Notes: generated from the sequence alone by a model not told the origin. Shown: positions 4,434 to 56,155, counted from the stretch's first letter. The stretch is 64,000 bases of DNA from a candidate division WWE3 bacterium (GCA_003599255.1 QZJF01000005.1:32985-96984), one strand, 5' to 3'. Translations and numbers: made by a program.

Positions 4434-4472
4434 AGCTCCGGATCATGAAGAAATAAACCTGTTAAGAAAAGG

Positions 4473-4498
4473 AAAAGCTCCCCAATTGGGGAGCTTTT
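4473..4498. terminator. Bidirectional intrinsic terminator between convergent GalT-like gene and rplL
   Basis: Perfect hairpin AAAAGCTCCCC-AATT-GGGGAGCTTTT. It is flanked by an A-run on the left and a T-run on the right, so it can act as a rho-independent terminator on both strands. Confidence 0.75.
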
Positions 4499-4522
4499 GT
4501 ATTCAATTTAAGTTAAGCAAAA

Positions 4523-4948: not shown

Positions 4949-4969
4949 CTCCTTTAAATATCTTATAAA

Positions 4970-13909: not shown

Positions 13910-13965
13910 TATATAAATTCTAATTTACTGTTTTGTTTAATCCACTAATCCCTGCTGTAGTTCGG

Positions 13966-19900: not shown

Positions 19901-22900
19901 TAAGTTGTTGTATAGGATTTGGCCTCCAACTGAAACCCATCCACATAAACCGTTTTTCCGCTTAATACATACAATCCATAAGTGTTTGAGGTGTCCGTTG
20001 TTGTGCCGGAGTAGGTGAGTCTCCACCAGCCCCCGCCCATGTCCGTGTAGGTTGTTGAGGATTGGTTTACACCCTCCCAGACAAGTTGTGCGACTGTGTT
20101 GTTTACTGTTCCTCCCACGTTTCCACTGGTGCCCTCGTATACATAAGCGGATATGGTATGCGATGATGCAGCGTTGGGGTCGATTGGAATATTAAAGTAC
20201 CCATTGCCACCACTGGCTGCCAAGGTTGCACTTTTTGCGCCGAATTTATAATAAGGAGCGGAAGAGTTTTCGGTTGCAGTTATGTCGGGTCCAAGTACCT
20301 GTGCCCATTTTATAATCCAGTTATGGGTGGTTCCGTCTACCCAAGTCAGGTAAATTCGTCCCGAGTCGCCGTAATTTGAGGAAAGCTCAGCATTGCTTTG
20401 TGAAGTGAGTCCTGTCTGAATGTTTGTTGTGGCCGCCCAGTCGCTAAGGGTAGAGCATTCCGAAGCTGCTGCAGATACATCGCATGTTGAATACATAACT
20501 GTATTTGTGTTCCAGTCATACCAGTGTCCGTACAAATCACCCGTGGAAGTATCTATCGAAATACTGGGATCCACCGCCTGGTCTCCCAGGTCCACGGCTG
20601 TCTGCCAGGTACCGTTTGTTCCTGTCCCATTGTCCCATCTGAAATATTGTGGTCCGGATGAATGCCCAACCAATAAGTGAACATCGTAGTTTGTTGTGTC
20701 GGAAACTGCTGAGGCAGGATAGCCTGTCCCTGCCGCTAGTATCAAGTCTTGATTGACACCGTTTGTACAGTCGTTGCCGCCGGAATCTTCCCATCTCCCG
20801 TCAGTTTGTGAGTCATAGAAACATCCATATGCAACAGTGCCTTCATAGTACACCGCATACACATCCCCGGAGTTTAAAGGCACTATCATGTTGACTGAAG
20901 TTACAGTACTTGTTCCTGTTCCGATATTTACAGAGGAGTTCCAAGTACTTGGGTCGTTGGTGTTCGTGCTACGTACAGCATATATGTCCATGTTACCGCC
21001 CGTGTACTCGTTGGCCGTTGCCCATAGATAATTATTTGAGTCTCTTGTAATATAGGGGCCATACCATGTGTTAGCCGTATCAAAGACTGTGTATTCGGTG
21101 CCCCATGTGAAGTTTGACCCGGGATATGACGTAGCACTTCTGGCCATAATATTTCCTCCTGTTTTGTACACAATGAACAGATTGCTCGAGTCCCCGTAAA
21201 CCGAATAATCCTGAACATTTGAGGTTAGCGCGGCTCCTGTGTTTTGCGTCCAGTTGATTCCATCCGAAGAATAAAAAAACAAGACATCACCATTACCGTA
21301 GTCATAATAGCCTGTCCAGTATCTTGTACCATCAAACCAGGTTTTTCTTTGGAAGCTCGAGCCGTTAGACTGTGTTCCAGCTGATGTTAAATTTTGTACT
21401 TCAAGATTTCCCTGGGCGTCCCAGTTGTTATTAAAAGTACTGTATTCAAATGAAGGGTTTGTGACTTTGTTTGTTGTACCTTCCTCGAGGAATATGCCCT
21501 CGTGTCCTGCATATGAGTTTCCGCCTCCGGCTTTTCCTGTCGTAGTAGAGTTGTTATCAACACCGATTAATCCGGCCACATACTTTGCTCCCGTAATCGT
21601 GCCGTGGTTAGCATTGCCTGAGTCATCAATAACCTTGCCTGTGTTTCTGGGGTCATCTCCGTTTTCGTCCAGATGGAGAAGTAGTTTCGTATACTCATCA
21701 CGAACAAAAGGGGACGTAGGAGGAGTGAAGCTTGAAGTGTATCGCACAATGTTAGATACTCTGATCTCATCCATATAGCCATGGTAATCGCGGACTTGGT
21801 TGTGTGAATTTCCAATATATAAATTGTAAGCTGCATCAGAATTTCTTGAACCCACGGCATCTTGCTTACTAGTGTAGGACACTTCAGTACCCCCAACGTA
21901 GACATGTACATTATCTGATTCTGTTGTTCCATCCCATGTTACTGTAATGTGCTGCCATGTCTCGTAGCTAATTGCGTTGCTAGCAGAAGTAACATTTAAG
22001 TCGGTTGTTGAATAGCCTACATTGAAGATCAATTGTTTAACTGAACTAATATATAATTGAATGTTATTGTTGTTAGGTGTGGCAAAGTTATCTCCTTTTA
22101 GAAATAATCGCGGTGAGCTGCTAGATCCCAAACCGTGTATATAAAACCAACCTTCAAATGTAAAGGGACCCAGATCGTCGATCGTACTTCCGGACCCGCC
22201 ATCAATATAATCGTCAGATCCGTCAAAACTAAGTGCACTCTTTTCTCCGGTATATCTGATTGCCCCGGTTTCAGTTGACGGAGTCTCGCCGGCTGCGCAT
22301 GTAGTGGTGCCATCAAATGAACATACAAGCAGAGCGTCTTTTGATGATATGTCAAACGCGTCATCCGCGCCCGATGGAGTTGCGGCGTTTTGATTATCGT
22401 AATACATGTAATACGTAGTGGCTGTTGAACCGTCGCTTAATGCCGATTGAAGTTTAAAGTAAACTTTGCTGGCTTCTGACGTTCCGCATGTACCCCCACC
22501 TGGATATGAAATGTATCTGTCCAGCTCTGTAGCGGTAGATCCTGATTGAAAAACAACGCGCAAATCGTCACAATCTGTCTGCAATTTTCCCTGATTGACA
22601 AGTTCTTTTGTATTAATCGTTACCGCAATTGTAGTCTCAGTTGCCAGACTGTCCCCACTATTGTTAGTGATATTCAATTGTTGCCTTTTGAGCCAGCCGG
22701 TACCGGATTCCTGATTTTGCCACCAGTCAGCTTGTACGTTACGGGCATTCCTGATTAAAAATATAAAAACGGGAATAAGGATTATGATCAGTCCCAGAAA
22801 GAAGGGGAGTAGAAGCTTTTTGGTGCGATTCAATACTCTTAACTTACTGAAAATCTTTTGAGCCGCAATTTTTAGCGGATTTAATAATTTTATTAAAAAT

Positions 22901-22929: not shown

Positions 22930-23092
22930 TGTTAGATCCCTATTTTTCGTCAGTAAATTGTCCCATTTTTAACAAATATGAACAAGCAATTTTGCTTGAT
23001 TTCACGCCAAATAACTGAACATATAATGTGTTCGATTGCATTAAAACGTATGTTTTCAACACTTCCGCTACTTGAACACAAAAGATGTACAT

Positions 23093-26000
23093 TTAATCAT
23101 ATCCAAAGTTAACAGCCCCAGAACTATATTCGCTCCTTACCTGGTTTTCAGTCATGGCATAATTAAAGATTCTTATGTTATCTATTAGTCCACCGAAGAA
23201 GTTTCTGTAACCGTTATTGTTTATGTTTCTGGTTGCACCTATTATCAAATTATTATTTGATGCTACAACATCGACTGTACCGGTTGCTTTTAAATTTCCG
23301 TTTACATAGATATAGCTTGTAGATCCGTTGGTTATTCCTACAATATGCGTCCATGTATCATTTAAAATAGATTCGGTAGTGTCCAAACAACTGCCCCCAA
23401 ATCCGCCCAAACTGACATTTCCGCCATCGTTAATAAACAATCCCCAGCCTTCAGTTCCATTGCACGGATCGTCTGCAAGTCCGCGGGCCACTATAGCCTT
23501 ATTTCCTGTTAAATCAGTGGTTTTTACCCACGCAGATATTGTCACAGGATTTAAATCCAAATCAAGTTTGCTCGAGGCACCAGCTGTGACGGATACATAA
23601 TCATCTGTTTCGTCAAACCCAAGGGAGGCACTATGCTTACCGGTTGTACCATCGTTCCACATTTCCGTAGAAGTGCCGGAGCCACATGTACCCGCAGATG
23701 TATTTCCAGAGGCCCCGGGGGTAATGGTTCCGTTTAGTCCGTTTCCGCTGGAGTCATTGGCGGTTGTTCCGCTGCACTCGTCGAATTTCCACCAAGCTAC
23801 CGGCTCGCCGCGGCTGTATTCCCAGGCAATTTGCTCAGCGGATCGGGCGTAATTGTATAGGCGGACTTCATCAATCTTTCCTGCCCACCATTCCGAAAAA
23901 CTATCAGTTCCGCTGTCATAAACACCCACATCCAGATCCTGTGTATTTTCAGACACTCCACCGTATGTGTAATTAAGGGAAGAATTATCGACCGTACCGT
24001 TAATATATAGGTACATGTTGTCGTTAGAAGTACCGGTGGTTTCATCCATAGTAAACACAACGTGATACCACTGATTCAAATTAAGTGACGTATTAGAGGT
24101 CAGGCATGCCATGCCTATGCAGGCACTCAAGTTTTCCGAACTATCTACAGCAATATAATAGTTAGGCCCCCCGCCTTTACTCAGTACTGTTTTATATCCG
24201 GATGTGATATCAGTATCAAGATAAATCCATGTGGCTATGGTAATATCACCTGTAATATCCAGATCGCTGTCGTCAGCAAATGCAACACGGCTACTTGTAC
24301 CATTAAAGTTAAGGGCAGTCCCAGTTTTTCCGGGAGTCCAACTTGCTCCAGTAACAGTGCCGTTTGCAGTTGTATCTGCTACATTTACAACATATACGTC
24401 TGAATTCTCATCAAAGTTTGCATGAAATACAGGTGGTGTACAAGTCGAACCTTGTCCGGACGGGCAGTATGTATTGGCAGATGCCCAGGTGGGGTTGCCA
24501 GAAGAATCGGTCCCGGTTGCTCCGAAGACCTGAGCTTTGCCTTGCGCATACTCGACTTTTGCTTGTTCGGCTGTTAACACAAAATTGTATATTTTGACTT
24601 CGTCAATATGCCCATCAAATGTTTGTGTGCCTCCAACTTGGTTGTTGCCGATAGTGATGGTGCTGGTGCTGTCATCCAGCGGGGATCCGGCACCTTCCGT
24701 AGCTGTATCATGGCCGACTTCTAAGCCGTTAACATAAAAATGCACTCCCGACGAGGCTGTACCTCCGTCCCAGGTTACCATGACGTGCTGCCATTCATTA
24801 AAAGTTATTGAATTAACGGCTGAAGCCACTGTTAGATCTGTAGTGCCAAGCATTTTTCTAAAAGACATATTGCTGGCACCAGCGCTGTTGTTTATTGCCC
24901 ATCTGAATCCGTCAGTACCGGGTGTTGTTTTTGCCATGATAAAAGCAAAGTCGAATTCTCCAGCACTTTGGGGATTGATCCAAGCCGATAAAGTAAATTC
25001 TGTCATGTTATCTACACTTGACGAAGCCCCCATACGAACCACGTCATCGTTTGTGCCTGATGTTCCTCCTGCAGGCCCTTCAAATTCCAATGCTCTGTCA
25101 AATTTTCCATCATTTCTCCACTGAGGGCAGTCTGTGGTTCCGGATTGAGGACAAGTTAAGCTGCTATCTCCCAGATCCCCATCAAGTGCGCTACCGGCAG
25201 ACCCTGAATTTCTTGCTGTATCTCCATAGCCTTCGTCAAATTTCCACCACGCTACAGCGGAACCGATGGGGGAGCCCGGTGCGGGGTGGGAGGCGTTCAT
25301 ATCCTGTACAATCTGTGCCGGTGTCCTGGTGTAGTTGTAGATCTTTACGTCGTCCATAATTCCGTCCACGGCGTTGCTTGTACTTTGCTGGGCATTACCG
25401 ATAGCAAAGCTGTCGCTGTTAGTCCAGGTCTGTGCGGATGTATCGGTTGATTTTAAATTTCCGTTCACATACAAGGAGTAGGTGGTGCCGGATTTTGTAA
25501 CTGCCACATGCTGCCAGGTTTTTGTAGTCAGTGTTACGTTGTCGACCTCAAACAAACTATCGGCATTACTCTCACCAATGTTCATCAATATTTCACTTGA
25601 TGCGTAGCCCATGCACCAGTCCATGGTGGAATAAGAAAATCTCTTGCACAAGAATCCATCTACTCCCAGAGTATTTGGATATACCCAAAACATGAATGAA
25701 AAGTTATCAGTGTCATCAGTCATAAAATTTGTGGAATCCTCAATGGTTATGTAGTCATCTGTATTGTCAAACTCACAGCCGGTACCGAACTTTCCCGGTG
25801 TATTGCACTTCATGCCCGAATCGTTGGCACCGTCATATGTTGTGGCCGGATTTCCGTTTCCACTGGAGTCTTTTAGAGTTACACCGTTTCCTGCTGAGTT
25901 TTCATCCATTTTCCAGTATCCTGCGGGCCCCGGTGCCCAGTTGTGTAGATCCCTCACTTCGGAAGAAGAGAGCGCACGATTGTAAATACGGACTTCATCA

Positions 26001-29000: not shown

Positions 29001-30307
29001 CCCAGAGTTCCGTGATTGCCATTGCCTGAATCGTCGAAAACTTTTCCGGTCTGTCTGGGATCATTTCGATTTTCATCAAAGTGTAGCAACAGCTTAGTAT
29101 AATCGTCCCTTAAATAGGGGATGGTCTGAGGAGTAAAATTTGAATCATAGCGGGCGATGTTCGATATTCTGAATTCATCCATTAGTCCGCGGTAAAACCC
29201 GGTTTGACAAGCAACTGAGCCGATCCTGAAGGTGTCCGCGTCACCATTATACGCACCGACTCCAGCCGTTTGAGTAGAATATGATGCTTCGGTTCCGTTG
29301 ATAAACACTCTTCCAGTTTTATTTGAAGAAGTATAGACAATTGCCACATGGGTCCATTGATTGCCGCTCACAGTGGTGCTTGTCGTTGTAACTGTATCCG
29401 TTGTGGCGTTTTCAACGCGTAACGTGATTGCCCCACCGGATATGTCGGCACGAAATCCATCAATAGTACAGCCGTATGTACCAAAAATAAACTGTGCCGG
29501 CCCGTAGGAAATATTATTGTAATTAAGCCACATCTCTACCGTGAAGTCTCCTTCAGGCAGATTGTCCAATGTAGTGTAAGAAGTTCCAAAAAGGACAAAG
29601 TCATTTGCCCCGTCAAAGTTGAGAGCCGACTTGGATCCTGTATATCTCCCAGCCCCCGTATCCGTGGTAGGTTCTTCCAGTCCATCCCCGTTAATACAGT
29701 CCGTCGTTCCATCAAACGGGCAAATGAGAAGAGCGTTAGTCGATCCGACATCGAATGTATCCACGTTGTTTGCCGTTATTGCATCTTTATTTCCATAATA
29801 CAAATAGTAATCGTCAGCTGACGCGCCGTTTGTCAGAGCTGCCTGAAGTTTGAAATATACTTTGGCAATTCCGGATGTGTGGCACGTACCCCCACCCGAT
29901 GGCGATGTGTAACTATCCAGTTCCGTATGTGATGTGTCGTCTGTGGTATAAACAATTCTTATGTCCTCACAGTTTTCTTTAAGAACGCCTCTGTTAGCCA
30001 TACTCAACGTATCGACGGTAACTGCGACGGTTGTACCCGAGGCCAATTCATCTCCGGAATTGTTAGTTATATTAAGTTTTTGTCTCTTTTCCCAGGCTGT
30101 GTGAGCGGGGGACCATTGTGCTTCTACGGGTTTAGAGTGTCGTGCAAGATAGATAAAGATTGGGACGGTGATGATAAGTAATCCCAGCGCAAAAGGAGCC
30201 AGTACTTTTTGATACTTTTTAAAATATTTTTTTAAAATCTTTAGGCGGTGCACTTGGCTCAGGCCCTTTTTTATTATTTTATTCAACATTGAGAATCCAC
30301 CAGTCAA
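23093..30307 (-). CDS. Giant surface protein 3 (2404 aa): paralog of genes 1 and 2, LamG/ConA-like multidomain
   Basis: The track start at 30307 is a TTG codon; the first ATG is at 30289 (MLNKIIKK...). It carries the same module: VLAPFALGLLIITVPIFIYLARHSKPVEAQWSP...WEKRQKLNITNNS...NCEDIRIVY. LamG motifs include MDEFRISNIARYDSNF, VDEVRIYNRALSSSEV, IDEVKIYNFVLTAEQA and IDEVRLYNYARSAEQI. The C-terminus is ...SGAVNFGYD. Its start overlaps the stop of gene 4 by 11–29 nt. Confidence 0.85.
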   Translation of the reverse strand: MTGGFSMLNKIIKKGLSQVHRLKILKKYFKKYQKVLAPFALGLLIITVPIFIYLARHSKPVEAQWSPAHTAWEKRQKLNITNNSGDELASGTTVAVTVDTLSMANRGVLKENCEDIRIVYTTDDTSHTELDSYTSPSGGGTCHTSGIAKVYFKLQAALTNGASADDYYLYYGNKDAITANNVDTFDVGSTNALLICPFDGTTDCINGDGLEEPTTDTGAGRYTGSKSALNFDGANDFVLFGTSYTTLDNLPEGDFTVEMWLNYNNISYGPAQFIFGTYGCTIDGFRADISGGAITLRVENATTDTVTTTSTTVSGNQWTHVAIVYTSSNKTGRVFINGTEASYSTQTAGVGAYNGDADTFRIGSVACQTGFYRGLMDEFRISNIARYDSNFTPQTIPYLRDDYTKLLLHFDENRNDPRQTGKVFDDSGNGNHGTLGSTTAVENTDPGYISGLVGVDASATNTGKSAGGNTYSGHEGIFIEEVTTNKITNPSFEHSSYVNDWTAGSGLTENENSTSNFSRFGNKSAKLSGYVEGYGFDNAQQVYSGLYLDTSSKRLAQGFQVSSSTSASSIILPMFKSGSSYTTVSMRVEIQSDSGGSPSGTPITNGQSEAVLVSSFTSYTDVTFSFASSPSLTSGTQYYIVLIAYTDVDGTIEQAVLDSDSTVKWLYDYTSATYPNGTYTRMNESNVWTPTASYDYIFSIIDSNPMTLTFSVDAGNTNTHTLSAYVYSQSNVISGTTFLFYGYDVSSSVASLIFNGTEQTTTYKDMGGGWWRLSYTGAAASGVQEFGISVEPGKVIYVDGFQLEEKEHATTYTDGSIGTGYAWTGTEHDSTSTRADTDLTYTKTGNVSTTSGSLSIWVKPMLGDSTMESNHNYNIISMRNNCEGFMLRYSSPGYGDRFEIQKWIDCTTNYTAIYNPSSLSADTWVHLVATWDTTNGISLYGNGAIGTTNSDITEPPSIGNIELGDQYSTDEFWSYSDLRIFDTALTSTQAADIYYSGLVSRSDNIEVDRFSGDKGQDPVGYWHFDECCGTTAHDSSQYGNHLTVSGAEWHAVSPNPNALTVNHLHFDATDDYVYQDWDRDFDFGTEGFTVQGWFQHPSSITGTDTLIARYGTAGWKVYMNSTGNICFGVDDDSSWGPDYSVCSPTSYADSTWHHFDAVKDTSTITLFIDGSQIAQTGSVTLGSLSANAKLYIGIDSDGTSNPWDADIDEVSIYPYAKTENQVKGDITSTPISQAFGMNIYNQLEQGLVAHWDMDENTGTSVSDSSGNSNNSTTWSGDTGWATGKYGSSLSFDGTDDGVRVAETASTDLGATDDSYTVSAWFNTSAEYTDNGTIVNKNANGPAYPFWLMITNSTERVAFRIYGGNAGYAESSGAYNDGNWHHAVGVRNTNTDKVYLYIDGELISTGDDNTTSVASNDDDISIGDDPGISGRSFNGQVDEVRIYNRALSSSEVRDLHNWAPGPAGYWKMDENSAGNGVTLKDSSGNGNPATTYDGANDSGMKCNTPGKFGTGCEFDNTDDYITIEDSTNFMTDDTDNFSFMFWVYPNTLGVDGFLCKRFSYSTMDWCMGYASSEILMNIGESNADSLFEVDNVTLTTKTWQHVAVTKSGTTYSLYVNGNLKSTDTSAQTWTNSDSFAIGNAQQSTSNAVDGIMDDVKIYNYTRTPAQIVQDMNASHPAPGSPIGSAVAWWKFDEGYGDTARNSGSAGSALDGDLGDSSLTCPQSGTTDCPQWRNDGKFDRALEFEGPAGGTSGTNDDVVRMGASSSVDNMTEFTLSAWINPQSAGEFDFAFIMAKTTPGTDGFRWAINNSAGASNMSFRKMLGTTDLTVASAVNSITFNEWQHVMVTWDGGTASSGVHFYVNGLEVGHDTATEGAGSPLDDSTSTITIGNNQVGGTQTFDGHIDEVKIYNFVLTAEQAKVEYAQGKAQVFGATGTDSSGNPTWASANTYCPSGQGSTCTPPVFHANFDENSDVYVVNVADTTANGTVTGASWTPGKTGTALNFNGTSSRVAFADDSDLDITGDITIATWIYLDTDITSGYKTVLSKGGGPNYYIAVDSSENLSACIGMACLTSNTSLNLNQWYHVVFTMDETTGTSNDNMYLYINGTVDNSSLNYTYGGVSENTQDLDVGVYDSGTDSFSEWWAGKIDEVRLYNYARSAEQIAWEYSRGEPVAWWKFDECSGTTANDSSGNGLNGTITPGASGNTSAGTCGSGTSTEMWNDGTTGKHSASLGFDETDDYVSVTAGASSKLDLDLNPVTISAWVKTTDLTGNKAIVARGLADDPCNGTEGWGLFINDGGNVSLGGFGGSCLDTTESILNDTWTHIVGITNGSTSYIYVNGNLKATGTVDVVASNNNLIIGATRNINNNGYRNFFGGLIDNIRIFNYAMTENQVRSEYSSGAVNFGYD

Positions 30308-33300
30308 AACTTATATCCTGGAAGTGGGGGACATCCAGGCCAACCTTAAATGAAGTTCCATCTATCTTTTCTTTTACGATTAAAGCCTGGCCGTTTGTAC
30401 TGGATGTAGCGGTTACAAATATCTTTGATCCGGCCTTAACATTGGTATTAGCTATCAGGACTTCTGTTTGTCCTGCAGTTATTGTTCCGCTTCCTACCAA
30501 GGTCGAGGTACCTTTTACCGAGAACTCGTCTGCTACCACTTTCTCAGCATTTATAGTTCCATCAACAGTTAGTGTTCCGTTTGGTTCGAGAACAATCTTG
30601 CCATCAAATATATCCAGATTGCCTGAGAGTTCTTTTTGCAGATACAGAGTCTGTGCTTCACACAGAACCTGATTGGTTGTTCCAAGTGTTTCGTTGTAGC
30701 AGCTGGGTCCGACTATTCCAATGGAGTTGCTTAATGAATCTATTTCCACCAGTCCCGCCATCAGATCTCCGGTTACCACTAAGTTGGAAAGCGTGGTATC
30801 TCCGGTGACGTTAAGATCCGTAGTTACTGCCAGCTGACCGTCGTTGTTTTGTAATCCAAGTTCGCTGACCATGTCCTTGAAATCGTTGTAAAGGGTCTCG
30901 ATTTGGTTCAATATGCCCATTGGATCAGTGAGTAAAGTAAGCAGGTTAAATGATTCTGTTGATTCGGTAGATTCAGTTGACTCTGTCGATTCGGTGCTTT
31001 GAGTGCTAGAACCCATGCCTAGCAATTCCTTTATTAGCGCTACGTCGTTTTTTACGTTATCAACCTCTTCTTCCAGTGTGATAAAGTCATTTCCTAGGTT
31101 GTCATAGTTTTGGGTCAATTGAGCAAATTCTGATTCCAATGTGGTGATTCTTGTATCAAAACCGACCGTTGTGTCGGTTACTTGTTGATATGTATCCTGT
31201 ACGTCTGTTTGAAGTTGGGTGGTTATACCCATAACATCGCCAAAGCTGTCGATTTGAATCTGCTGTTCTTGTAGCGCTCCCAGAAGTACGACTCCTAGCC
31301 TGTCGTATTTCACACCCTTTGGTGTAATACCGTCTGCCTCATAGCTCACTAAGAATGGCATTACCTGTTCAACCTGTTCGGCGATCAAACCGAAGTCTTC
31401 CACATCAGGTGTAACTGTTGTGCTATTCCATTTAAAGGTTACGGGGTTGAGTTGTAGCACTGAATCAAGATTTATGTCCAGATCGCTTATATCTTTTTTG
31501 AATCTTTCGCTTGATGAAAGCTGAATCAGCTGATTGTTTGAATCAAAGTAGAGTGCCGTACCTGTTCCTGTAGGAATGTTGGAAACTCGGGCTGTTCCGT
31601 TTACATCCAATGTGTAACCGGGTTCAGAAGTTCCGATTCCTACATTTCCGCTCACAATCAGACCGTTGGTGGGTGCTGTGCTGACTCCTGCGTATGTGCC
31701 GAATGCGGCGTTTCCAAATACATCCAGTGTGTTTTGAGGTGTAGTGGTTCCGATTCCTATTCTGTCATTGGTTGTATCAAGATTTAACAGGTTGTTTCCA
31801 AAGTTCAAAGCCGTGGTGGAGGTGGCAAGTGACCACGCCTGTGCCTGATTTAGTGTCACTCCGCCTGCAGCATCAAGTACTACATCACCACTGTTGAATG
31901 TCCTTAGGGTAAGATTATTGCTTTCATGAGATTCTCCTACTTCAAGGTAGAGCGGTGCATAAGTTTTGATATAGCTGGAGGATTGACCGGTGAATTGAAT
32001 GTCATTTGCTATTGAAACATCTCCTGCTGCAGCGAAAGAGTGGGGGAGATAAGAAGTAATAACAGTCTGATTAATTGTAAACAGCTCACTATTGTCGTCG
32101 TATACGCCAAAGAGATTACCTCCATCAAGAGTGCCGTTTGATCCTATATTAATTTTGAACAGATCTCCGGTAGCGGTTGAAGAAGAGATAGGCGACCAGT
32201 CTATACTTGTTAGTGCCCCTGCCAGTGTGGTTGAAGTCGAAGATACCGATAGTCCTGTTCCCGTGGTCAGCCCGTCGAATGAGAATAGTGCGCCTGTACC
32301 TGTAGTTACGTTGTCTGCGAACACGCCTAGTGCACCTTGTGTAGTAGCGCTTCTAACATCAAGCTGGTAGCCAACTGCGGTGGTACCGATTCCCACATTT
32401 CCACTGACAAGCAACCCGTTTGCAGGAGCGGTGTCGGTTCCTGCATATGAACCGATTACAGCATTTCCTGATATATCGAGTTTGTTTTGTGGAGTAACTG
32501 TTCCTATCCCAACTCTTGCATTAGTGGTATCAAAGTTCATTAGTCCGGATTCAATATTAAGTGCCGTTGTTGAAGCTGCCAGATTAAGGCTCGCAGTATT
32601 TGAAGATATCCAGGTTCCTGCGTTTAGAGTAAGTGTGTCTGATGAGTCATCACCAAGTGTTGTGTCTCCGTTGACGTTGAGACCGTAATTAAAGGTAGAG
32701 TCATTTGTTCCTGATCCAATATTAAATATACTTCCGAACTGATCTCTAAAGTCGTAGGAAAGCCCATTAGTACCGTCTGCAAAGAATCTCATGGTACCGC
32801 TTCCAACACCAAGTGAATAAGTATCTATGGAAGTGTAGCTAGAATATCCGGATTCCTGAATTCGAAACCCGCCATTTATGTGAAGGGTATCCTGCGGACT
32901 TGAGTTTCCGATTCCCATTCTGGAGTTGATATTGTCCCAATAGAAATCCTGCGATGATGCCAGGGATGAACTTCCATCCCAGAATGATACTCTTCCTGCT
33001 ACACCTGTACCGGTAATTGTTCCACTGCCTGCTTCCGGAGAGCATTTCCAGACTTGCTGCGAAGAATCCCAGGTAAGAAGTTCTCCGTTACCGCAGCCAC
33101 CGAGTAATCTGAGTCCGTCTGCGGCAACCTCAAGTCCCGAATTTGATGCTGTGGTTGAAGTAGTAGACGTAGTAGCTACATCCAGTGACAAAGCCGTACC
33201 AGAAAGTATGAGTCCGTTTCCTACAAAATCTCCTATGGTTTCTCCTCCGAGTCTGATAGTTCCATTTACATCAAGTGTGGCTGCAGGGTTTGTTGTTCCG

Positions 33301-45300: not shown

Positions 45301-47555
45301 GACCCTATATGTAAATCCGAGCCGGAGGCAACCCTCACATTGCCGTTAACATCAAGAGAATACTGTGGATTTGTTGTTCCAATACCCACATTCCCCGAAC
45401 CATCTATGACAAAGGGTGTCGTATCAGCTGAACTATCGTTCACTCTAAACGAAAAACCGGATGTTGTGTTTGTCAGCGTTAATAGTTCATTTGTTATATC
45501 CAGGAAAAACGGAGAGCCCGGTTCACTTCCGCCTATCGATAAGTTTTGTGAGGTGGACACCGGGTGAATTGTCCCTGAGGTTACTGTCCATATTCCGCTT
45601 CCACCGCCGATTGCTGCGTTGTATGCGGTATTTATTGCGTCTACTATAGCTGTGTCTCCGCTGTCAAAATCTGTGTCAATATCTGTCATGGTGATTGGGG
45701 AGGTAAGTGTCGCGTCGTCGAAAGTAAGTGTGGTACCGCTTATACTTATTGCGTCTCCACCATCACCCAGATTAACTGGGCCGTTTGCTACAAGTGCTCC
45801 GGAAGAAATGGTCACGCCACCGCCTATTGTCATCCATTGGGAGAAAGTAGATGTGCCGTTTACGGTTAAAAGTTCGGTTCCCGGGTTCCATGTTATTTGA
45901 GTATCATCGTTTGTCAGTGTTCCGGCACTATCGGCAAAGAAAACTCCGTATGGATCAAATCCCGTGGTTGTAATAGGTCCAATGACCGATCCGTAAATTG
46001 TTCCCCCAACTTCCAGACTACCTTCGATGTATTGACTTTCTGACATACCTCCAACATAAGTAGGTGCTGTTGAGCCGTCCCCGATGTGAAGGGTTGTCAC
46101 GGGGCTTGTTGTTGAAATACCTACCCTTCCTGTTTCAGTAATCCTTAATCTCGTTATGTCGTTAGTTCTAAATGAAAGTCCTACATTGTCAGTGGTACCG
46201 ATAAAGTCTACATCGGGATCCGATCCGGCATTTCCTGCCAGAAGCCAGGAAATATCTCCAAAAAAAGTGGAAGTATTGGACCACTCCGGGGTTGTGCCAT
46301 CAGATGTCAAAATGTATCCGTTTGTTCCGGTTATTGAAATTACGGATAAGGTGTTAGAAGCCGAAGCGTACAAAAGATCCCCGGTTGTGTACGATGTCAA
46401 CCCAGTTCCTCCATTTTCAGGAGCTATTTCTGTACCTTGCCATACACCCGTGGTTATTGTGCCAAGTTGTGTAATTTCAGTCTGAGGTACGCTGGTCCAA
46501 TCACCATCAACTGCCATAATTATATTGTCATCATCTGTCGATAAGTCTCCAAAGGTGGCACCGTTAATGCTGACAACAGTTACATTACCCAGTCCGGTAC
46601 CTTCCACATCCCCACCGATATCAAGAGCTTCCTCTAAAGTTGTTTCGGTGACTTCATTGATAGCTCCCAAGTTGTTCAATGCCGCCGTTCCGATAAAGTT
46701 TACTTCTCCGGCGGTTATGGCTCCGGTTCCAAAATTCGCATCGGCGTTGTTTGTAGTAATGCCGCCTAGGAGAGAGGACAATTCATTAACAGTCAGGTCT
46801 TTTTCAAGTGTAATTGTCTCTCTAAATATCCCGGGCACACTAAGTCTGAACACAAAGTTTGCGTTTCGATCAACCGCAGCCAGAACATTGTCATAGAATG
46901 ACATCTTACCGGACTGCGGTACTTCTTTTCTTTGCGCAAATGCGCCTGATATTACGTGTACAAAATTATCTTTAAAACCCATGAAGGTTAGCAATCCAAA
47001 TGCAAAAACGATGAATATTATAATGCCCCCTATCTTTGTGAGTTTAGGATTTATGTGTATATGACTAAGAATGACGGATTTTCGTTTAATATCATTTAAC
47101 TTTGTCACTTCTTCAGGAATACTAGTGTCAGTCTTTGTCGCATTGATTTCATGATCAGCTTTTGTTTGTGCACCTAAATCCTGTTTCAATTTATTTTGCG
47201 AAAGAGCTTTCAATGTTCCTGTAAGGTTTAAAAGATCCGCTCTTGGAGACGCTTGAGGAACAGGAATGGAAGTAGTGGAAGAGTTAGTATTTTTTTTGAG
47301 ATCGGCTTTTTGATTGTTTAAATCCGTTTTCAGATTTAAAACATCACTGCGTTTAAACATTCTATACCCGTTAGGTTGTCGGATGGAGTTTACTTTATTC
47401 TCGCTTTCAAATCTGCGGAGAGTTGAAGAAGATACGCCTAATAACTTAGCTGCCTCGGAAACATTTAAAAGTTGTTTGGTAGATATGCTTGAAGAACTAT
47501 GTGATTTACTTGCAGGTTTTTTTCGTCTTTTTCTTTGGGCAGAAACTGAGCTCAT
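30279..47555 (-). CDS. Giant tail-fibre-like surface protein 4 (5758 aa): N-terminal Xis/MerR-type HTH, TM helix, reiterated fibre modules, C-terminal peptidase S74 intramolecular-chaperone domain, coiled-coil/(STE)5 tail
   Basis: Uninterrupted 17.3-kb ORF preceded by an AAGGA RBS. Residues 27–76 (LLNVSEAAKLLGVSSSTLRRFESENKVNSIRQPNGYRMFKRSDVL) match the excisionase/MerR-type HTH_17 pattern. The TM helix is IGGIIIFIVFAFGLLTFMGF at residues 175–194. About 5000 aa follow, made of three module types with recurrent GIGTT(S/N/A)Px..LDVNG motifs. Near the C-terminus LSSSERFKKDISDLDINLDSVLQLNPVTFKWN...FGLIAEQVEQVMPFLV matches the S74/endosialidase chaperone domain. Confidence 0.85.
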   Translation of the reverse strand: MSSVSAQRKRRKKPASKSHSSSSISTKQLLNVSEAAKLLGVSSSTLRRFESENKVNSIRQPNGYRMFKRSDVLNLKTDLNNQKADLKKNTNSSTTSIPVPQASPRADLLNLTGTLKALSQNKLKQDLGAQTKADHEINATKTDTSIPEEVTKLNDIKRKSVILSHIHINPKLTKIGGIIIFIVFAFGLLTFMGFKDNFVHVISGAFAQRKEVPQSGKMSFYDNVLAAVDRNANFVFRLSVPGIFRETITLEKDLTVNELSSLLGGITTNNADANFGTGAITAGEVNFIGTAALNNLGAINEVTETTLEEALDIGGDVEGTGLGNVTVVSINGATFGDLSTDDDNIIMAVDGDWTSVPQTEITQLGTITTGVWQGTEIAPENGGTGLTSYTTGDLLYASASNTLSVISITGTNGYILTSDGTTPEWSNTSTFFGDISWLLAGNAGSDPDVDFIGTTDNVGLSFRTNDITRLRITETGRVGISTTSPVTTLHIGDGSTAPTYVGGMSESQYIEGSLEVGGTIYGSVIGPITTTGFDPYGVFFADSAGTLTNDDTQITWNPGTELLTVNGTSTFSQWMTIGGGVTISSGALVANGPVNLGDGGDAISISGTTLTFDDATLTSPITMTDIDTDFDSGDTAIVDAINTAYNAAIGGGSGIWTVTSGTIHPVSTSQNLSIGGSEPGSPFFLDITNELLTLTNTTSGFSFRVNDSSADTTPFVIDGSGNVGIGTTNPQYSLDVNGNVRVASGSDLHIGSIGLTDTASPTTSGAYLVGTNDEFTYSNGANVQDVLDDLDAQLSTLSGDTHPALQLAGTANYLSLNAASQVLTQSAIDLSNTSNVSNQLGVAYGGTGLNTSTAPSGTLLIGTGTGWNVKAMGGDATIDNTGTLDLSDTGVAAGTYGSSTGIPVVTVDAEGRITSAATSPLINIVDGTGLTNYVARWTDSNSLTTGIIYDNGTTVGIGTTSPDPTYTLDVNGPVNMTALYLNDSQITADASELNILDGALVTTSELNLLSGRTGTLLDNNNIASYAVTSVLGGNGLTNVGTGPGSLTLNVGAGNGITVNADDITIDATTTGATSTTASNSGLEVTASGLRMLGGCANNQLLVWNAGADRWECNSVSGVGAVSGSGSAGQVTYWNGTSSVTGTDAFFWDSNTSRLGIGTTAPAYALDVNGDIRIASGSDLYIGTIGLNDTGTSNTDSGASRVGVFDEFTYSAGTTVQDVLDDLDAQLSTLSGDTHPALQLAGTANYLSLNAASQVLTQSAIDLSNTSNVSNQLGVAYGGTGLDTSTAPSGTLLIGTGTGWNVKAMGGDAAIDSTGTLTLANTGVSAATYGSTTGIPVITVDAKGRITSASTAPISQSLGGTGIANYVARWTDPTNLSTGILFDNGTSVGVGTSSPSEILDVTGAIRLGTAGLNNVLNTSAAAGSPTGDLFWGTRTLVDSSNVSSYATTAVTAGSGLTGGGTTGALTLDIGAGDGITVNANDITIDATTTGATSTTASNSGLEVTASGLRMIGGCSNNELLVWNALADRWECNSVSGVGAVNGSGATGQVTFWNGTSSLTGSDNFFWDSTLSRLGIGTTAPAYAVDVNGDVRVASGSDFIIGNIGIGDSASATASGAYVVGVFDEFNNSNATNVQAVLNDLDAAIGAGASKWTDNGAITFLTATTDDVAIGGEDSTSPFFFDVDGGLFTITSTAPSGYAFLVNDSAGDLTPFVIDTNGVVGIGTTSPNSTYALDVNGAINTTSLYLSGSQVTSSAAELNILDGALITTSELNLLQGRSGTLLDSNNVSSYAVTSVLGGSGLTNAGTGPGSLTLNVGAGNGITVNADDITIDATTTGTTSTTASNSGLEVTADGLRLLGGCSNSELLVWNAGADRWECNSVSGIGAVNGSGATGQVTFWNGTSSITGSDSFFWDNNTNRLGLGTTAPAFALDVNGDIRIAAGSDLLIGSIGLSSTSAPTTSGAYLIGVNDEFTYSDSTNVQAVLNDLDAQFGTLAGDSHPALQLAGTANYLSLNGPSQVLTQNAIDLSNTSNVSNQLGVAYGGTGLDTSTAPSGTLLLGTGTGWNVKAMGGDATIDSTGTLTLANTGVTAATYGSSTSVPVITVDSKGRLTSVTTSPLLNIVDGTGLANYVARWTDNNTLATGVIYDTGTRVGIGTTNPGATYALDVNGAVNTTALYLNGSQVTSTAAELNILDGALITVTELNLLQGRSGTLLDSNNVSSYAVTSVLGGNGLTNVGTGPGSLTLNVGAGDGITVNADDITIDATTTGTTSTTASNSGLEVTASGLRLLGGCSNNELLVWNAGADRWECNSVSGVGAVSGSGSAGQVTFWNGTSSLTGSDNFFWDSTLSRLGIGTTAPAFALDVNGDVRVASGSDFLVGSIGLSSTSAPTTSGAYLVGVNDEFDFSNSTNVQAVLNDLDANFLNYSLASDTHPALQLAGTANYLSLNAASQVLTQSAIDLSNTSNVSNQLGVAYGGTGLDTSTAPSGTLLIGTGTGWNVKAMGGDATIDSTGTLDLSDTGVGAGTYGSSTGIPVFTVDAEGRLTAASTAPILNFTDGTGITNYVARWIDENTLSTGVIYDNGTRVGIGTTNPGSSYTLDVNGAVNMTSLYLNGTQVTADASEINILNGALITTSELNLLQGRSGTLVDSNNVSSYAVTSVFGGDGLTNVGTGPGSLTLNVGAGDGITVNTDDITIDATTTGTTSTTASNSGLEVTADGLRLLGGCSDNELLVWNAGADRWECNSVSGVGAVSGSGAIGQVTFWNGTSSLTGSDSFFWDSSLNRLGIGTTAPAFALDVNGDVRVASGSDFFVGSIGLSSTSAPTTSGAYLVGVNDEFDFSNSTNVQAVLNDLDANFLNYSLAGDTHPALQLAGTANYLSLDAASQILTQSAIDLSNTSNVTNQLGVAYGGTGLDTSTAPSGTLLIGTGTGWNVKAMGGDATIDSTGTLDLSDTGVGAGTYGSSTGIPVFTVDAEGRLTSASTAPLLNITDGSGIANYVARWTDDNTLSTGLLYDTGTLLGLGTTAPAFKLDVNGDVRVASGSDFFVGSIGLSSTSAPTTSGAYLIGVNDEFDFSNSTNVQAVLNDFDANFLNYSLAADTHPALQLAGTANYLSLNGSQVLTQSAIDLSNTSNVSNQLGVAYGGTGLDTSTAPSGTLLIGTGTGWNVKAMGGDATIDSTGTLDLSDTGVGAGTYGSATGIPVITVDSEGRLTAASTSPLLNITDGSGIANYVARWIDSNTLSTGIAYDTGTYFGIGTTNPNQELHVVGVGTAILADGFNQTTGIDIALRSNIRTWNLGVDGSGTATTQGEFWISDGQSTLKRLLIDGSGYVGIGTTNPVERLDVSGGIRLGTAGTNNILNTSAAAGSPTGDLYWGSDVIVDSSNVSTYATTGVTAGSGLTGGGTTGVLTLDIGAGDGITVNANDITIDATTTGTTSVTASNSGLEVTADGLRLLGGCSNGEALTWDTTLQVWKCSSVAAGLTGAGTIGQVAFWDGTSSITGSDSFFWDSNTSRLGLGTTAPAFTLDVNGDVRVASGSDFFVGSIGLSSTSAPTTSGAYIIGVNDEFDFSNSTNVQAVLNDLDANFLNYSLAGDTHPALQLAGTANYLSLSAASQILTQSAIDLSNTSNVSNQLGVAYGGTGLDTSTAPSGSILLGTGTGWNVKAMGGDATIDSTGTLDLSDTGVGAGTYGSATGIPIITVDAEGRLTSASTAPLLNVTDGTGITNYVARWTDENTLSTGILYDNGTNVGVGTTNPAYILDVYSGSTTGGLGVFADSVTTGTGALFSFDGLTTGTGLSISSTSSSFSTGTLAAVDWSPLSSATASGDLFSINIGSNGSLTGNLFAVYDDGAAVFTVQQNQIESAVPHVFTAAGDVSFSYDAIFTNQTSAQIESYGPFSIIAGESFESNNLTLRTYGTGNIIADLGGNFVLYDNDPTLVFDTETATDTDFWMGILENSDNTDNDLLVIGDGTSSGTNPFFAITTSGDIGIGTTNPAAKLEINGAIRLGGETIGDFVGSGLIVSGTALSLDVTTTSTTSTTAANSGLEVTADGLRLLGGCADGEALIWDSSREVWDCTAVAAGLSGSGTAGQVAFWDGSTSLTGNDSLFWDSGTSRLGLGTTAPDAILHAVGGDLYVAPDSGYTFDNASAAEDLYVFGNLEIDGTIYGNTASLGQIDIGGESIGDFVGDGLIVSGTALSLDVTTTSTTSTTASNSGLEVTADGLRLLGGCSNGEALTWDTSQEVWKCSSVAAGLTGSGSIGQVAFWDGTSSITGSDSFFWDTSTGRLGLGTTAPAFTLDVNGDIRIASGSDLLIGSIGLSSTSAPTTSGAYLVGVNDEFDFSNSTNVQAVLNDLDANFLNYSLASDTHPALQLAGTATYLSLDGSQVLTQSAIDLSSSLNVSNVLGTTNGGTGLDTSTAPSGSLLIGTGTGWNVKAMGGDATIDSTGTIDLSDTGVAAGTYGSTTGIPIVTVDAEGRLTSASTAPLLNITDGTGIANYVARWTDNNTLSTGILYDDGTNVGVGTTNPSYMLEVFSGSTTGGLGVFADSVTTGTGALFSFDGLTTGTGLSISSTSTAFSTGTLAAVDWSPLSSATASGDLFSINIGSNGSLTGNLFAVYDDNSPLFTITQSQITSYLPHTFSSAGDVSFSYDAIFTNQTSSQIESYGPFTIIAGESFENNDLTLRTYGSGDIVADLGGNFVLYDNDPTLLFDVESGTDTDFWMGVLEDSDSTDDDIFAIGDGLSSGTNPFFVINTSGNIGIGTTNPAATLDVNGTIRLGGETIGDFVGNGLILSGTALSLDVATTSTTSTTASNSGLEVAADGLRLLGGCGNGELLTWDSSQQVWKCSPEAGSGTITGTGVAGRVSFWDGSSSLASSQDFYWDNINSRMGIGNSSPQDTLHINGGFRIQESGYSSYTSIDTYSLGVGSGTMRFFADGTNGLSYDFRDQFGSIFNIGSGTNDSTFNYGLNVNGDTTLGDDSSDTLTLNAGTWISSNTASLNLAASTTALNIESGLMNFDTTNARVGIGTVTPQNKLDISGNAVIGSYAGTDTAPANGLLVSGNVGIGTTAVGYQLDVRSATTQGALGVFADNVTTGTGALFSFDGLTTGTGLSVSSTSTTLAGALTSIDWSPISSSTATGDLFKINIGSNGTLDGGNLFGVYDDNSELFTINQTVITSYLPHSFAAAGDVSIANDIQFTGQSSSYIKTYAPLYLEVGESHESNNLTLRTFNSGDVVLDAAGGVTLNQAQAWSLATSTTALNFGNNLLNLDTTNDRIGIGTTTPQNTLDVFGNAAFGTYAGVSTAPTNGLIVSGNVGIGTSEPGYTLDVNGTARVSNIPTGTGTALYFDSNNQLIQLSSSERFKKDISDLDINLDSVLQLNPVTFKWNSTTVTPDVEDFGLIAEQVEQVMPFLVSYEADGITPKGVKYDRLGVVLLGALQEQQIQIDSFGDVMGITTQLQTDVQDTYQQVTDTTVGFDTRITTLESEFAQLTQNYDNLGNDFITLEEEVDNVKNDVALIKELLGMGSSTQSTESTESTESTESTESFNLLTLLTDPMGILNQIETLYNDFKDMVSELGLQNNDGQLAVTTDLNVTGDTTLSNLVVTGDLMAGLVEIDSLSNSIGIVGPSCYNETLGTTNQVLCEAQTLYLQKELSGNLDIFDGKIVLEPNGTLTVDGTINAEKVVADEFSVKGTSTLVGSGTITAGQTEVLIANTNVKAGSKIFVTATSSTNGQALIVKEKIDGTSFKVGLDVPHFQDISFDWWILNVE
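32000..45500 (-). repeat. Large intragenic tandem repeats in giant gene 4 (about 0.65–2.3 kb units, at least 8 copies of modules A/B and 3 copies of module C)
   Basis: Opposite-strand shadow ORFs with near-identical translations recur at 34546, 36835, 38338, 39004, 40339, 41686, 42763 and 44218 (MLFEKSNSSLTPTKYAPEVVGAEVLL...). A second shadow series appears at 33151 and 35266. Protein blocks such as TSTTASNSGLEVTA(S/D)GLRLLGGCSNNELLVWNAGADRWECNSVSG are repeated at least 6 times with about 85–95% identity. Confidence 0.8.
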
Positions 47556-47582
47556 TTTTTATCCTTTTCAAATGTTGTTATA

Positions 47583-47632
47583 AAAACATTTGATAATGTT
47601 TTAATGATATGAAACACAGGTTTATGTGTCAA
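47583..47632 (-). promoter_or_regulatory. Sigma70-like promoter of giant gene 4 with an overlapping palindromic operator-like element
   Basis: Read on the minus strand: TTGACA at 47632–47627, a 17-nt spacer, then TATCAT at 47609–47604. Just downstream lies AAAACATT-tgat-AATGTTTT (47583–47602), with a further inverted copy CAAATGTT at 47569–47576 between the predicted TSS and the RBS. Confidence 0.4.
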
Positions 47633-48335
47633 CACTTTTCGAAGGTTGGAATATGTTGTTGTTACAATATATAATGCCTGTCAATGTGTATTGATAAACG
47701 TGAATATTTTTTTTGTTGTTACAGCAATAAAAGATAACCTTTATTTTTAATATAAATTCCTGCAAAAATCGAGTAAACTTTGTCCGGAATTATTTGACCT
47801 GTGACTTTGAAAATTATTTAAAAAATATTGTAAATTTTGCGATACTGTTGTCATATATTTTCCTAGTGACTTCTTTTCTCTAAGTTTTTGTGTTTCGTTT
47901 GTCCGGTTAATTGATTTGTAAAAAATTTGAAACAGTTTTAAACTTAGATTTCAAAGGTCATTAATTTTAGACATAGATTTTCATATAACCATGCCTGGGT
48001 AAAAAAGTAGTTCATTTGTTAATCTTTTAGATATCTCAAGGATGCACTGCGAACTTACATATTTTCTATTTAACCCATGTAACTCTCAAGTTTACTTAAT
48101 ACTTTAAAAAATTTTTAATTTCTGTAGAATTTTATTAACGGCTTTTACCTTTAATCTACATTTTTTAATTACGGCTTATTGCTCGGACAGCGTAGTGAGT
48201 TAAGATCCAGCTTGACGTCAATGGAGATTATTATAATGACCGTTAGAGTAGTGATGTTTTTAATGTTTACCAAATGCCGTCGATACAGCATTTAACAATG
48301 TATATTTGTTTAAATATTCTGGTTGTATCGTGTAG

Positions 48336-49124
<789 letters not shown>

Positions 49125-54434: not shown

Positions 54435-55088
54435 CTAGAGCTGATTTATGTCTACTAAGAACGATGGACCCATTGTTGAACATACATAAATGCTTTTGAT
54501 CCATTCAGCCTTTGCCTTGGCTGGTTTGTTCTGTTTTAGAGTGTTATACACTTCAAAAAAATTCTCTGTTAGTTGCTTATCGCTGAAGCTTTTCTTACCA
54601 ATGATAGTGTGAATAACGGGGGAGTCTTTCTCGGTCTTTATTTCAACTTTGCCCTTTTTAATCTGTTCTACGGCTGTTTGCACATCTTCAGTTACAGTAC
54701 CGGTCTTTGGGTTGGGCATTACACCCGCAGGTCCCAGTATTTTGGCTACTTTGGCTAATTTTGGCATGAATTTTGGCTCAGCAACTAATACTTCAAAGTC
54801 CACTTTAGGTCTTAATTTTCCTTTTTCAATGTTTTCGATGTCCGATTCACTAAGTTCAAGGTCAGCGTTGGTGACTTTTTTGGATGCTAACACGGCAACT
54901 TTTTTGGTTTTCCCTGTGCCATGGGGGAGTGTTGTAGAAAACCTCACCGACTGTTCTCCTGCCTTGGCATCCTTAATAAGATTAATATGAATCTCTATTG
55001 TTGAATCAAAAGCCGTCTTGGAAGTTTCCTGTGCTTTCTTAATGGCGGTTTCTACTGTATATAAATTCATATCTTTGTTTTTTTTCAT
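54435..55088 (-). CDS. rplA: 50S ribosomal protein L1
   Basis: 217 aa. FDSTIEIHINLIKDAKAGEQSVRFSTTLPHGTGKTKKVAVL is typical of L1, and the gene is directly downstream of rplK. Confidence 0.9.
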   Translation of the reverse strand: MKKNKDMNLYTVETAIKKAQETSKTAFDSTIEIHINLIKDAKAGEQSVRFSTTLPHGTGKTKKVAVLASKKVTNADLELSESDIENIEKGKLRPKVDFEVLVAEPKFMPKLAKVAKILGPAGVMPNPKTGTVTEDVQTAVEQIKKGKVEIKTEKDSPVIHTIIGKKSFSDKQLTENFFEVYNTLKQNKPAKAKAEWIKSIYVCSTMGPSFLVDINQL

Positions 55089-55093
55089 ATGTT

Positions 55094-55537
55094 TTATTTT
55101 TCAACCTCTACACCCATTGAACGGGCGATACCTGCAATAATTCTGCTTGCTTGACTCAGATCTTTTGTATTAAGATCCGGCATTTTGGCCTGAGCTATTT
55201 CTTCAATTTGTTTTTTTGTAAGTTTTCCGACTTTTTGCTTGTTGGGGACTGCAGAACCCTTGTCAATTTTCAGAGCCTTTTTAATCAAGTGGGATGCTAC
55301 CGGAGTCTTGGTTATAAAATTGAAGGATCTGTCTTCGTACACTGTAAGTATTACTGGAATGACGTCATCTCCCATTTGCGCAGTTTTAGCATTAAACTCT
55401 TTGCAGAAATCCATTATAGCTACACCATGTTGTCCAAGTGCGGGTCCGATCGGAGGTGCGGGGTTGGCTTTACCGGCTGGTATTGCCAACTTAACGATTG
55501 CTTTAATTTTCTTTCCTTTTTTTGGTTTTACTGCCAT
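55094..55537 (-). CDS. rplK: 50S ribosomal protein L11
   Basis: [52 protein letters not shown] is a canonical L11 N-terminal domain. Confidence 0.95.
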
Positions 55538-55549
55538 ATATTTTAATAA

Positions 55550-56155
55550 TTAAAGCCTGGAAATTTGTGTGAAATCCAATTCTACAGGCGTTTCTCTTCC
55601 AAAAACTGATACAAGGACCTTGACTTTGCCTTGTTCCTCGTTCACTTCGTCAACTTTGCCCAGGAAGTCCCTGAAAGGTCCGTCCGAAATTTTTACCGAA
55701 TCTCCTACAGAGAACTTGGCTTCAAACTTAGGAGCTTCCATTTTAGCAAATTTCATCAATGTTTTGACCTCTGACTCCGGAAGGGGAGTAGGTGCTGATC
55801 CCATGCCTACAAATCCGGTTACACCGGGAGTGGATCGTACAACATACCATGCGTCATCATCCATTATCATTTGCACCATAAGATATCCGGGAAAAAGTTT
55901 TTCTTCGGTAGACCTTTTCTTTCCCTCTGTAACAACTATTTTCTGTTGCTGAGGGATAAACATCTTAAAAATTCTGTCGGTAAAGCCTCCGATTTCAGCT
56001 CTTTGCTTAAGTGTAGCGGCAACTTTATTTTCATGCCCGGAATAGGTATGCACAACATACCATTTGGCTTCCAACGGTATATCGGAATTAACGATAATAA
56101 CGCCGTCTTCCTTAGTTATATCTTTATCTATTGTGTTACTTTTACTGTTTGCCAT
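55550..56155 (-). CDS. nusG: Transcription termination/antitermination factor NusG
   Basis: KWYVVHTYSGHENKV in the NGN domain and the C-terminal KOW GDSVKISDGPFRDFLGKVDEVNEEQGKVKVLVSVFGRETPVEL. The gene sits between secE and rplK. Confidence 0.9.
   Translation of the reverse strand: MANSKSNTIDKDITKEDGVIIVNSDIPLEAKWYVVHTYSGHENKVAATLKQRAEIGGFTDRIFKMFIPQQQKIVVTEGKKRSTEEKLFPGYLMVQMIMDDDAWYVVRSTPGVTGFVGMGSAPTPLPESEVKTLMKFAKMEAPKFEAKFSVGDSVKISDGPFRDFLGKVDEVNEEQGKVKVLVSVFGRETPVELDFTQISRL

Follow-up and report, generated by a model that had tools for sequence, protein, structure and literature searches.

Palindromic DNA lies directly past the predicted promoter of a giant gene (gene 4) in the 64-kb stretch of candidate division WWE3 DNA analyzed here, hereafter the window. 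Does it serve as an operator, as an earlier note proposed for a dimeric HTH repressor in a classic roadblock position, or does it act after transcription, in the mRNA? Comparison with related loci points to a palindrome that this note did not describe, and we tentatively favor its action as a protective stem-loop at the 5' end of the transcript.

Four co-oriented giant genes, encoding proteins of 2404–5758 aa, occupy positions 5771–47555. Together they span about 42 kb, of which gene 4 alone takes 17 kb. Gene 3 carries Laminin_G_3 repeats, and its start (30307) overlaps the end of gene 4 (30279). The neighbors are housekeeping genes, with a divergent F-type ATP synthase operon, nusG-rplK-rplA on one side and the L10 leader with rplJ-rplL on the other. 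This L10 leader (RF00557, 5556–5732) is the sole Rfam match in the window at gathering thresholds, and positions 47450–48400 gave zero matches even at an E-value of up to 1. No tRNA or tmRNA genes were found in the window, nor any convincing small ORFs in the 789-nt intergenic region upstream of gene 4.

For comparison, nine further loci encoding the same kind of protein, with a MerR-like HTH, one membrane helix and a very large extracellular part, were used, representing eight distinct lineages; three of them come from WWE3 genomes (CPR bacteria). A metagenome scan added one locus only, a duplicate of the L003 lineage. The promoter of the earlier note, TTGACA-17-TATCAT, is correct in sequence; it is an 11/12 promoter match and the top promoter-like site within 46500–49000. 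The motif TTGAC[AT]-16/18-TAnnnT recurs 76–89 nt upstream of the ATG in 8/8 related loci with enough upstream sequence, and was thus found in the window and in L001/L004, L003/L006/L009, L002, L007, L008, L011, L012 and L013 (for L010, a partial leader was available). The 16–18 nt between the two hexamers differ wholly from lineage to lineage, a sign that change has reached saturation at neutral positions. Upstream of the -35 box, 18 nt of the A-rich block (CTTCGAAAAGTGTTGACA) are identical in L002, L012 has AAAAAGTGTTGACA, and L001, L003, L007 and L008 share AAAGT(A/T)TTGAC. Conservation thus supports the assignment of a putative sigma-70-type promoter to gene 4. Past TATCAT the minus strand reads TAAAACATTATCAAATGTTTTTATAACAACATTTGAAAAGGATAAAAA, followed by the ATG at 47555. 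The AAGGA that had been named as the ribosome-binding site was confirmed (47566–47562, minus strand), and AAGG stands at the equivalent alignment columns in L012, L013, L011 and L008. No comparable promoter-like site was detected upstream of genes 3, 2 and 1, and no similar motif in the minus-strand gaps upstream of giant genes 2 and 1 (22880–23130 and 13880–14000). The gene 4 promoter presumably serves all four giant genes as one operon. The features of the locus are collected in Table 1.

Table 1. Features at the start of gene 4, in window coordinates.
Feature	Position	Strand	Remarks
-35 hexamer TTGACA	47627-47632	-	From the sequence; TTGAC[AT] at the same position in eight loci
-10 hexamer TATCAT	47604-47609	-	TATCAT or TATTAT kept in relatives
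A-rich block CTTCGAAAAGTG, UP-element-like	47633-47644	-	Abuts the -35 hexamer upstream
Predicted transcription start	A47597	-	7 nt past the -10 box, preceded by C; from promoter geometry only
Palindrome A, AAAACATT-atca-AATGTTTT, perfect 8-4-8 dyad	47583-47602		Spans about -5 to +15
Third half-site CAAATGTT	47569-47576	+	
Palindrome/hairpin B, TCAAATGTT-N8-AACATTTGA	47565-47596	-	Formed from the middle and third half-sites
Shine-Dalgarno-like AAGGA	47562-47566	-	6 nt upstream of ATG, directly 3' of hairpin B
Gene 4 start codon	47553-47555	-	N-terminus MSxxSAQ aligns with family members
Gene 4, 5758 aa	30279-47555	-	First of four co-oriented giant genes
Short MerR-like winged HTH plus one helix	47280-47471	-	Residues 29-92 of gene 4
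Predicted membrane helix	46977-47039	-	Residues ~173-193, hydrophobic IGGIIIFIVFAFGLLTFMGF; model helix 173-193; putative membrane role

Dyad A is present exactly as the earlier note claimed (47583–47602), and so are the third half-site at 47569–47576 and the AACATT hexamers of alternating orientation, at 47571–76 on the minus, 47585–90 on the plus and 47595–600 on the minus strand. Its placement of the palindromes between the predicted start and the ribosome-binding site is likewise supported, with A itself reaching back to about -5. The full dyad occurs a single time in the 64-kb window, with no convincing second copy, and AACATT is not enriched there (66 seen vs. 66 expected). When perfect inverted repeats with arms of at least 8 and a spacer of up to 10 are counted, the 789-nt intergenic region contains two distinct ones against 0.41 expected, both in the gene 4 leader. 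Two such repeats with centers at most 20 nt apart arose in 230 of 20,000 dinucleotide shuffles (1.15%). The arrangement is therefore moderately unlikely by chance, and conservation in relatives provides the stronger evidence. Across nine leaders, 63.9% of the cells of dyad A are paired (slid controls, 25–49%), two pairs are changed on both sides, the covariation score is 0.094 (slid, up to 0.174), and 120 of 500 shuffles pair as well. Only the window has the dyad in perfect form; L012, the closest leader, retains it at 7/8 positions (TATACATT-atca-AATGTTTA) with a both-sided change at the outermost pair. Judged from these leaders, dyad A belongs to the window/L012 subclade and is not the key element that it had been taken for.

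The palindrome that the earlier note overlooked, B, is according to the same alignment the conserved element. Its core comprises UCAAAUGUU (47593–47585), the loop UUUAUAAC (47584–47577) and AACAUUUGA (47576–47568). A repeat finder extends the arms to 16 nt, of which 14/16 positions are complementary. A B-type quasi-palindrome of about 40 nt lies on a common axis in 9/9 aligned leaders, the window included, in an alignment that is gap-free inside over some 40 columns past the -10 box. RNAalifold gave a consensus structure for a six-sequence alignment and none for the nine-sequence alignment. The consensus of the six leaders, extended inward, was therefore scored by explicit pair counting. Over 16 pairs and nine leaders, 80.6% of the cells are paired vs. 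30–47% when the partners are slid, seven pairs are changed on both sides vs. 0–3, and the covariation score is 0.281 vs. at most 0.108; 0–1 of 500 shuffles reach the observed values. Columns 15-16/39-40, for example, form the compensatory series TC/GA, CC/GG and CT/AG. Such compensatory pairing is kept across the nine sequences, and pairing at the DNA level would leave the same signal. Complementarity runs unbroken, with up to 16 pairs, to a variable 8-nt loop, whose closing pair is kept in 9/9 leaders and the next pair in 8/9. An element of about 40 nt with unbroken complementarity would exceed the usual reach of a single HTH dimer and is typical of a hairpin.

The position of B is informative as well. 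Its symmetry axis lies 23.5–27.5 nt past the -10 box (a range of 4 nt) vs. 22.5–35.5 nt upstream of the ATG (a range of 13 nt), which ties B to the start of the transcript rather than to the start codon. The outer pairs (columns 8–11) are kept in 15/20 cells where their distance from the -10 box should allow them to be transcribed vs. 7/16 where they would lie upstream of the predicted start. Besides the pairing, the arms retain the consensus TTAYCAAAT, with invariant column pairs 12-13/42-43 and 17/38, next to a promoter spacer saturated with changes. Conservation beyond pairing may point to a protein that recognizes the sequence. A k-mer search for a motif common to all upstream regions returned nothing but AT-rich words and fragments of the hairpin arms. 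Further motif copies, which the earlier note had proposed to look for, were sought with the full dyad, the AACATT hexamer, the B half-site TTATCAAATGTT and both inverted-repeat patterns, and this revealed no enrichment and no second copy in the 64-kb window or in 13 fetched loci.

Hairpin B is the minimum-energy fold of the window leader RNA (-7.5 kcal/mol, z = -3.1). The equivalent hairpin is the minimum-energy fold in L002 (-13.3 kcal/mol, z = -4.8), L012 (-9.6 kcal/mol, z = -3.1), L001 (-9.3 kcal/mol, z = -2.9), L003 (-9.3 kcal/mol, z = -2.3), L011 (-10.6 kcal/mol, z = -1.75), L013 (-6.3 kcal/mol, z = -1.1) and L007 (-6.8 kcal/mol, z = -0.5). The partial leader of L010 has it at -10.5 kcal/mol (z = -4.0), and L008 is the exception, with a different, shifted register (-9.2 kcal/mol, z = -1.1). 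The hairpins are AU-rich and of modest stability, with z-scores weaker than -2 in four leaders; combined by hand with Stouffer's method, the nine independent leader z-scores give about -7. Among sliding 45-nt segments of the 300 nt upstream, the leader has the strongest structure in 4/6 loci (window, L002, L001 and L003). Among the TTGAC[AT]-type promoter-like sites of the window, only that of gene 4 precedes a strongly structured segment (z = -3.4). Counted from A47597, the core stem begins at +5 and the extended stem at +2, and in the relatives the stem starts 3–7 nt past the -10 box. In the window fold AAGGA is unpaired. The strand asymmetry expected of selection on RNA was not seen: G·U and A·C cells are equally frequent in B (8 vs. 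8 in nine leaders, a low-power test), and the minimum-energy folds of the two strands have about the same stability. Dyad A folds as RNA at -3.9 kcal/mol; most of its upstream arm precedes the predicted start, so that A would not form in this RNA. For these reasons, and since A is not conserved, a switch between alternative hairpins A and B was dropped. A terminator or attenuator was rejected too: no terminator-like site falls on the palindromes, both stems are AU-rich and no U-run follows B.

The gene behind this leader encodes an unusual protein. As the earlier note stated, its N-terminus holds an HTH, which Pfam identifies as MerR-type (residues 31–77; PF00376, 2.9e-08; PF13411, 4e-07), and no other HTH protein was found among the window ORFs scanned. 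An AlphaFold2 model is confident for the HTH region only (pLDDT 81–94, residues 31–90) and consists of beta-alpha-alpha-beta-beta and a 24-residue helix (69–92), then disorder and then the predicted membrane helix. A low-complexity linker joins the HTH to this hydrophobic helix, beyond which the huge remainder follows. With residues ~29–80 as the query, Foldseek placed BldC (6AMA/6AMK; rmsd 1.4 Å, 31% identity), RacA (5I44) and Pukovnik Xis (4J2N) on top, followed by the DNA-binding heads of SoxR, CueR and CadR. An exhaustive profile search yielded at least 37 family clusters at an E-value of 1e-30 or better, many with members of 2,000–7,185 residues. The clusters can be aligned at their N-termini from the first residue, across the HTH and the membrane helix, as far as the first extracellular motif, and share the signature M..(S/P)AQ...VSEAAKLLG.S.STLRR.E..GKI.S.R..NGYR.F. 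These shared N-termini indicate that the joining of an HTH to a giant surface protein is a real and recurrent arrangement. Near the other end, gene 4 carries a Peptidase_S74 domain (~residues 5348–5403, found in 30282–33281 on the minus strand; 4.9e-12), some 355 residues before the C-terminus; Peptidase_S74 is the intramolecular chaperone of endosialidase and tail-spike proteins. In the L001 homologue (3899–5488) the HTH-membrane-helix protein stops at 529 aa and a separate gene comes next, and L009, of the L003 lineage, has an apparently frameshifted 118-aa version of the HTH protein. Some family members may be split, or such cases may reflect giant genes altered by assembly errors or frameshifts.

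We read B, with a probability that we place somewhat short of even, as a 5'-terminal leader stem-loop that protects the ~42-kb mRNA of the giant genes. The start site, the action as RNA and the effect on mRNA stability are all three what we infer. Transcription would begin near A47597 from the conserved sigma-70-type promoter, and the first ~30 nt of the mRNA would fold into a stem-loop that starts 1–4 nt from the 5' end and ends just before the ribosome-binding site. Such a paired 5' end may hinder decay, which would proceed by RppH-type pyrophosphate removal and then attack by RNase J or an RNase E-type enzyme, and the very long transcript could thereby survive until it is completed and translated. 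The free ribosome-binding site just downstream of the stem would act as a second protective element. Stem-loops at the 5' terminus stabilize the E. coli ompA and papA mRNAs and the B. subtilis aprE leader mRNA, and RppH of B. subtilis requires at least two unpaired 5' nucleotides (PMC3997798). B shares with these stabilizers a hairpin at or within a few nucleotides of the predicted 5' end and, behind it, an exposed ribosome-binding site; its transcript, too, would have to be long-lived. It differs from them in that there is no homology, the stem is AU-rich, weaker and unusually conserved in sequence, the host is a CPR bacterium and the start is a predicted one. Dyad A is left unexplained by the stem-loop reading; the chance of an extra perfect 8-bp arm beside B is about 1e-3 by a rough estimate from base composition.

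An operator in the DNA stays a serious rival, given the conserved arm sequences and a G·U count no higher than that of A·C, even if we consider it unlikely on balance. A repressor bound to the palindromic DNA, from about -5 to +40, would then block RNA polymerase, and its site could be dyad A in the window or, family-wide, the two TTAYCAAAT half-sites of B. The claim of a roadblock operator was right about the position, the promoter and the presence of an HTH gene. Both A and B are dyad-symmetric and sit just past the -10 box, at the place of lacO-type sites, and the perfect 8-4-8 geometry of A resembles the mer operator of MerR, which is a 7-4-7 dyad. The L012 variant of A, with its both-sided change, fits an operator as well. 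That the arms of B are conserved in nine leaders next to a randomized spacer, with G·U as frequent as A·C, makes a DNA-level site possible, perhaps for the HTH of gene 4. What the claim did not foresee is that A is unconserved beyond the window and L012, that B is hairpin-like and that the HTH is of the short BldC/RacA/Xis type. B measures about 40 bp, with complementarity into its center and compensatory changes, neither of which a pair of fixed half-sites needs, and the cores of its half-sites are ~23 bp apart, too distant for a compact MerR-type dimer. Classical MerR operators sit inside a promoter spacer of 19–20 bp, whereas the spacer here is 17 bp in the window and 16–18 bp in relatives and is not palindromic. 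According to the model, the HTH of gene 4 would also lack the long antiparallel coiled-coil for dimerization and the effector-binding region of classical MerR proteins. RacA, one of the close structural matches, binds GC-rich dyads. BldC, likewise among them, is without the MerR dimerization helix and binds direct repeats rather than dyads (PMC5859096). The lack of a second motif copy in the window and the fetched loci counts against an operator too.

The repressor itself could be a trans-acting regulator or, with only a slight chance in our estimate, the cytoplasmic HTH of gene 4 in a ToxR-like manner. The leader always comes with this conserved, confidently folded domain, which lacks another obvious target, and no second HTH gene was met among the ORFs scanned. 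As in ToxR, CadC and TcpP, a cytoplasmic N-terminal domain, one membrane helix and an extracytoplasmic part are predicted. Those proteins are DNA-binding regulators, with an OmpR-type winged helix where gene 4 has a MerR-like one, and the likeness of gene 4, whose outside part runs to thousands of residues, is one of predicted topology. BldC and Xis are small and soluble and RacA is a coiled-coil protein, while the HTH of gene 4 would form the cytoplasmic tip of a membrane-anchored protein of 5758 residues. An N-terminal HTH on a membrane protein may have a partner other than DNA; that of RodZ binds MreB. Instead of protecting the mRNA, the leader hairpin could also tune translation by pairing in part with the ribosome-binding site or be recognized by a processivity factor over the ~42-kb operon, which we consider improbable. 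Columns 42–45, the outer 3' arm, read AAGG in the window and in L012, L013, L011 and L008; these bases are the ribosome-binding site, paired in the consensus structure with CnTT of the 5' arm. The stem is conserved in sequence beyond what pairing needs, as expected for an RNA recognized by a protein. Leaders of very long operons frequently contain signals for processive antitermination, and LoaP and the EAR element are cases in which leader hairpins serve polymerase processivity. Against such roles, AAGGA is free in the window fold, the arm is without a ribosome-binding site in L002, L007, L001 and L003, and the distance of B is fixed to the promoter and not to the ATG. Nor did Rfam recognize the element, and the sole NusG gene of the window is the housekeeping copy beside rplK. 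Least probable of all appears the absence of any function, with the palindromes as by-products of AT-rich composition and shared ancestry. The shuffles produce two neighboring perfect repeats at a frequency that is not vanishingly low, AACATT is at its expected count and several leaders have weak z-scores. Yet composition and ancestry do not account for a common-axis palindrome in nine leaders with unrelated promoter spacers, or for its seven compensatory pairs and a pairing far above that of the slid controls.

The protective leader hairpin is thus more likely than autoregulation by the gene 4 HTH. What makes B interesting is its tie to the giant genes of CPR bacteria and to an HTH at the tip of the protein. 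A transcript of 17–42 kb takes many minutes to complete and must therefore avoid being degraded or terminated early. Part of this problem would find a simple answer in a leader element kept throughout a family of giant surface-protein genes of CPR bacteria, and B would join a very small number of cis-regulatory elements known from these uncultivated bacteria. Should the gene 4 HTH nonetheless bind the palindrome of its own leader, it would tether the locus to the membrane during synthesis and export and stop further initiation. We think this doubtful; if true, it would be a new kind of membrane-tethered autoregulation, a self-anchoring and self-limiting giant-gene circuit conserved in a CPR protein family.

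Other repeats surround the promoter. TAACAACA occurs three times on the minus strand within 150 nt (47714–47721, 47657–47664 and 47573–47580), out of five copies in 64 kb, and its third copy overlaps both the loop and the 3' arm of B. The 11-mer TGTAACAACAA is present twice, 57 nt apart, upstream of the -35 box, and related words are found upstream in L002, L003 and L007. The repeats may mark a protein site of the direct-repeat type. In L002 a second inverted repeat, GCTAAATATTG-ctataa-CAATGTTTAGC, lies at 540–570, immediately before the -35 box (z about -3.7); it aligns with ATATTGTAACAACAACATAT of the window, where there is no clear palindrome.

In the wider neighborhood, the usual nusG-rplK-rplA-rplJ-rplL cluster is split (4523–5732 and 54435–56155, minus strand), with some 48 kb between rplA and the L10 leader/rplJ; this interval holds the ATP synthase operon on the opposite strand and the four giant genes. 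L007 resembles the window in that secE-nusG-rplK-rplA is followed by a divergent gene and then by the HTH gene. In the window, the ORF divergent from gene 4 encodes 259 aa (48345–49124, plus strand) and has no Pfam match, and a divergent gene of 236–267 aa adjoins the HTH gene in L001, L007, L011, L012 and L013. The intergenic region between the two is unusually long for a small genome, at 789 nt in the window and about 1 kb in L001.
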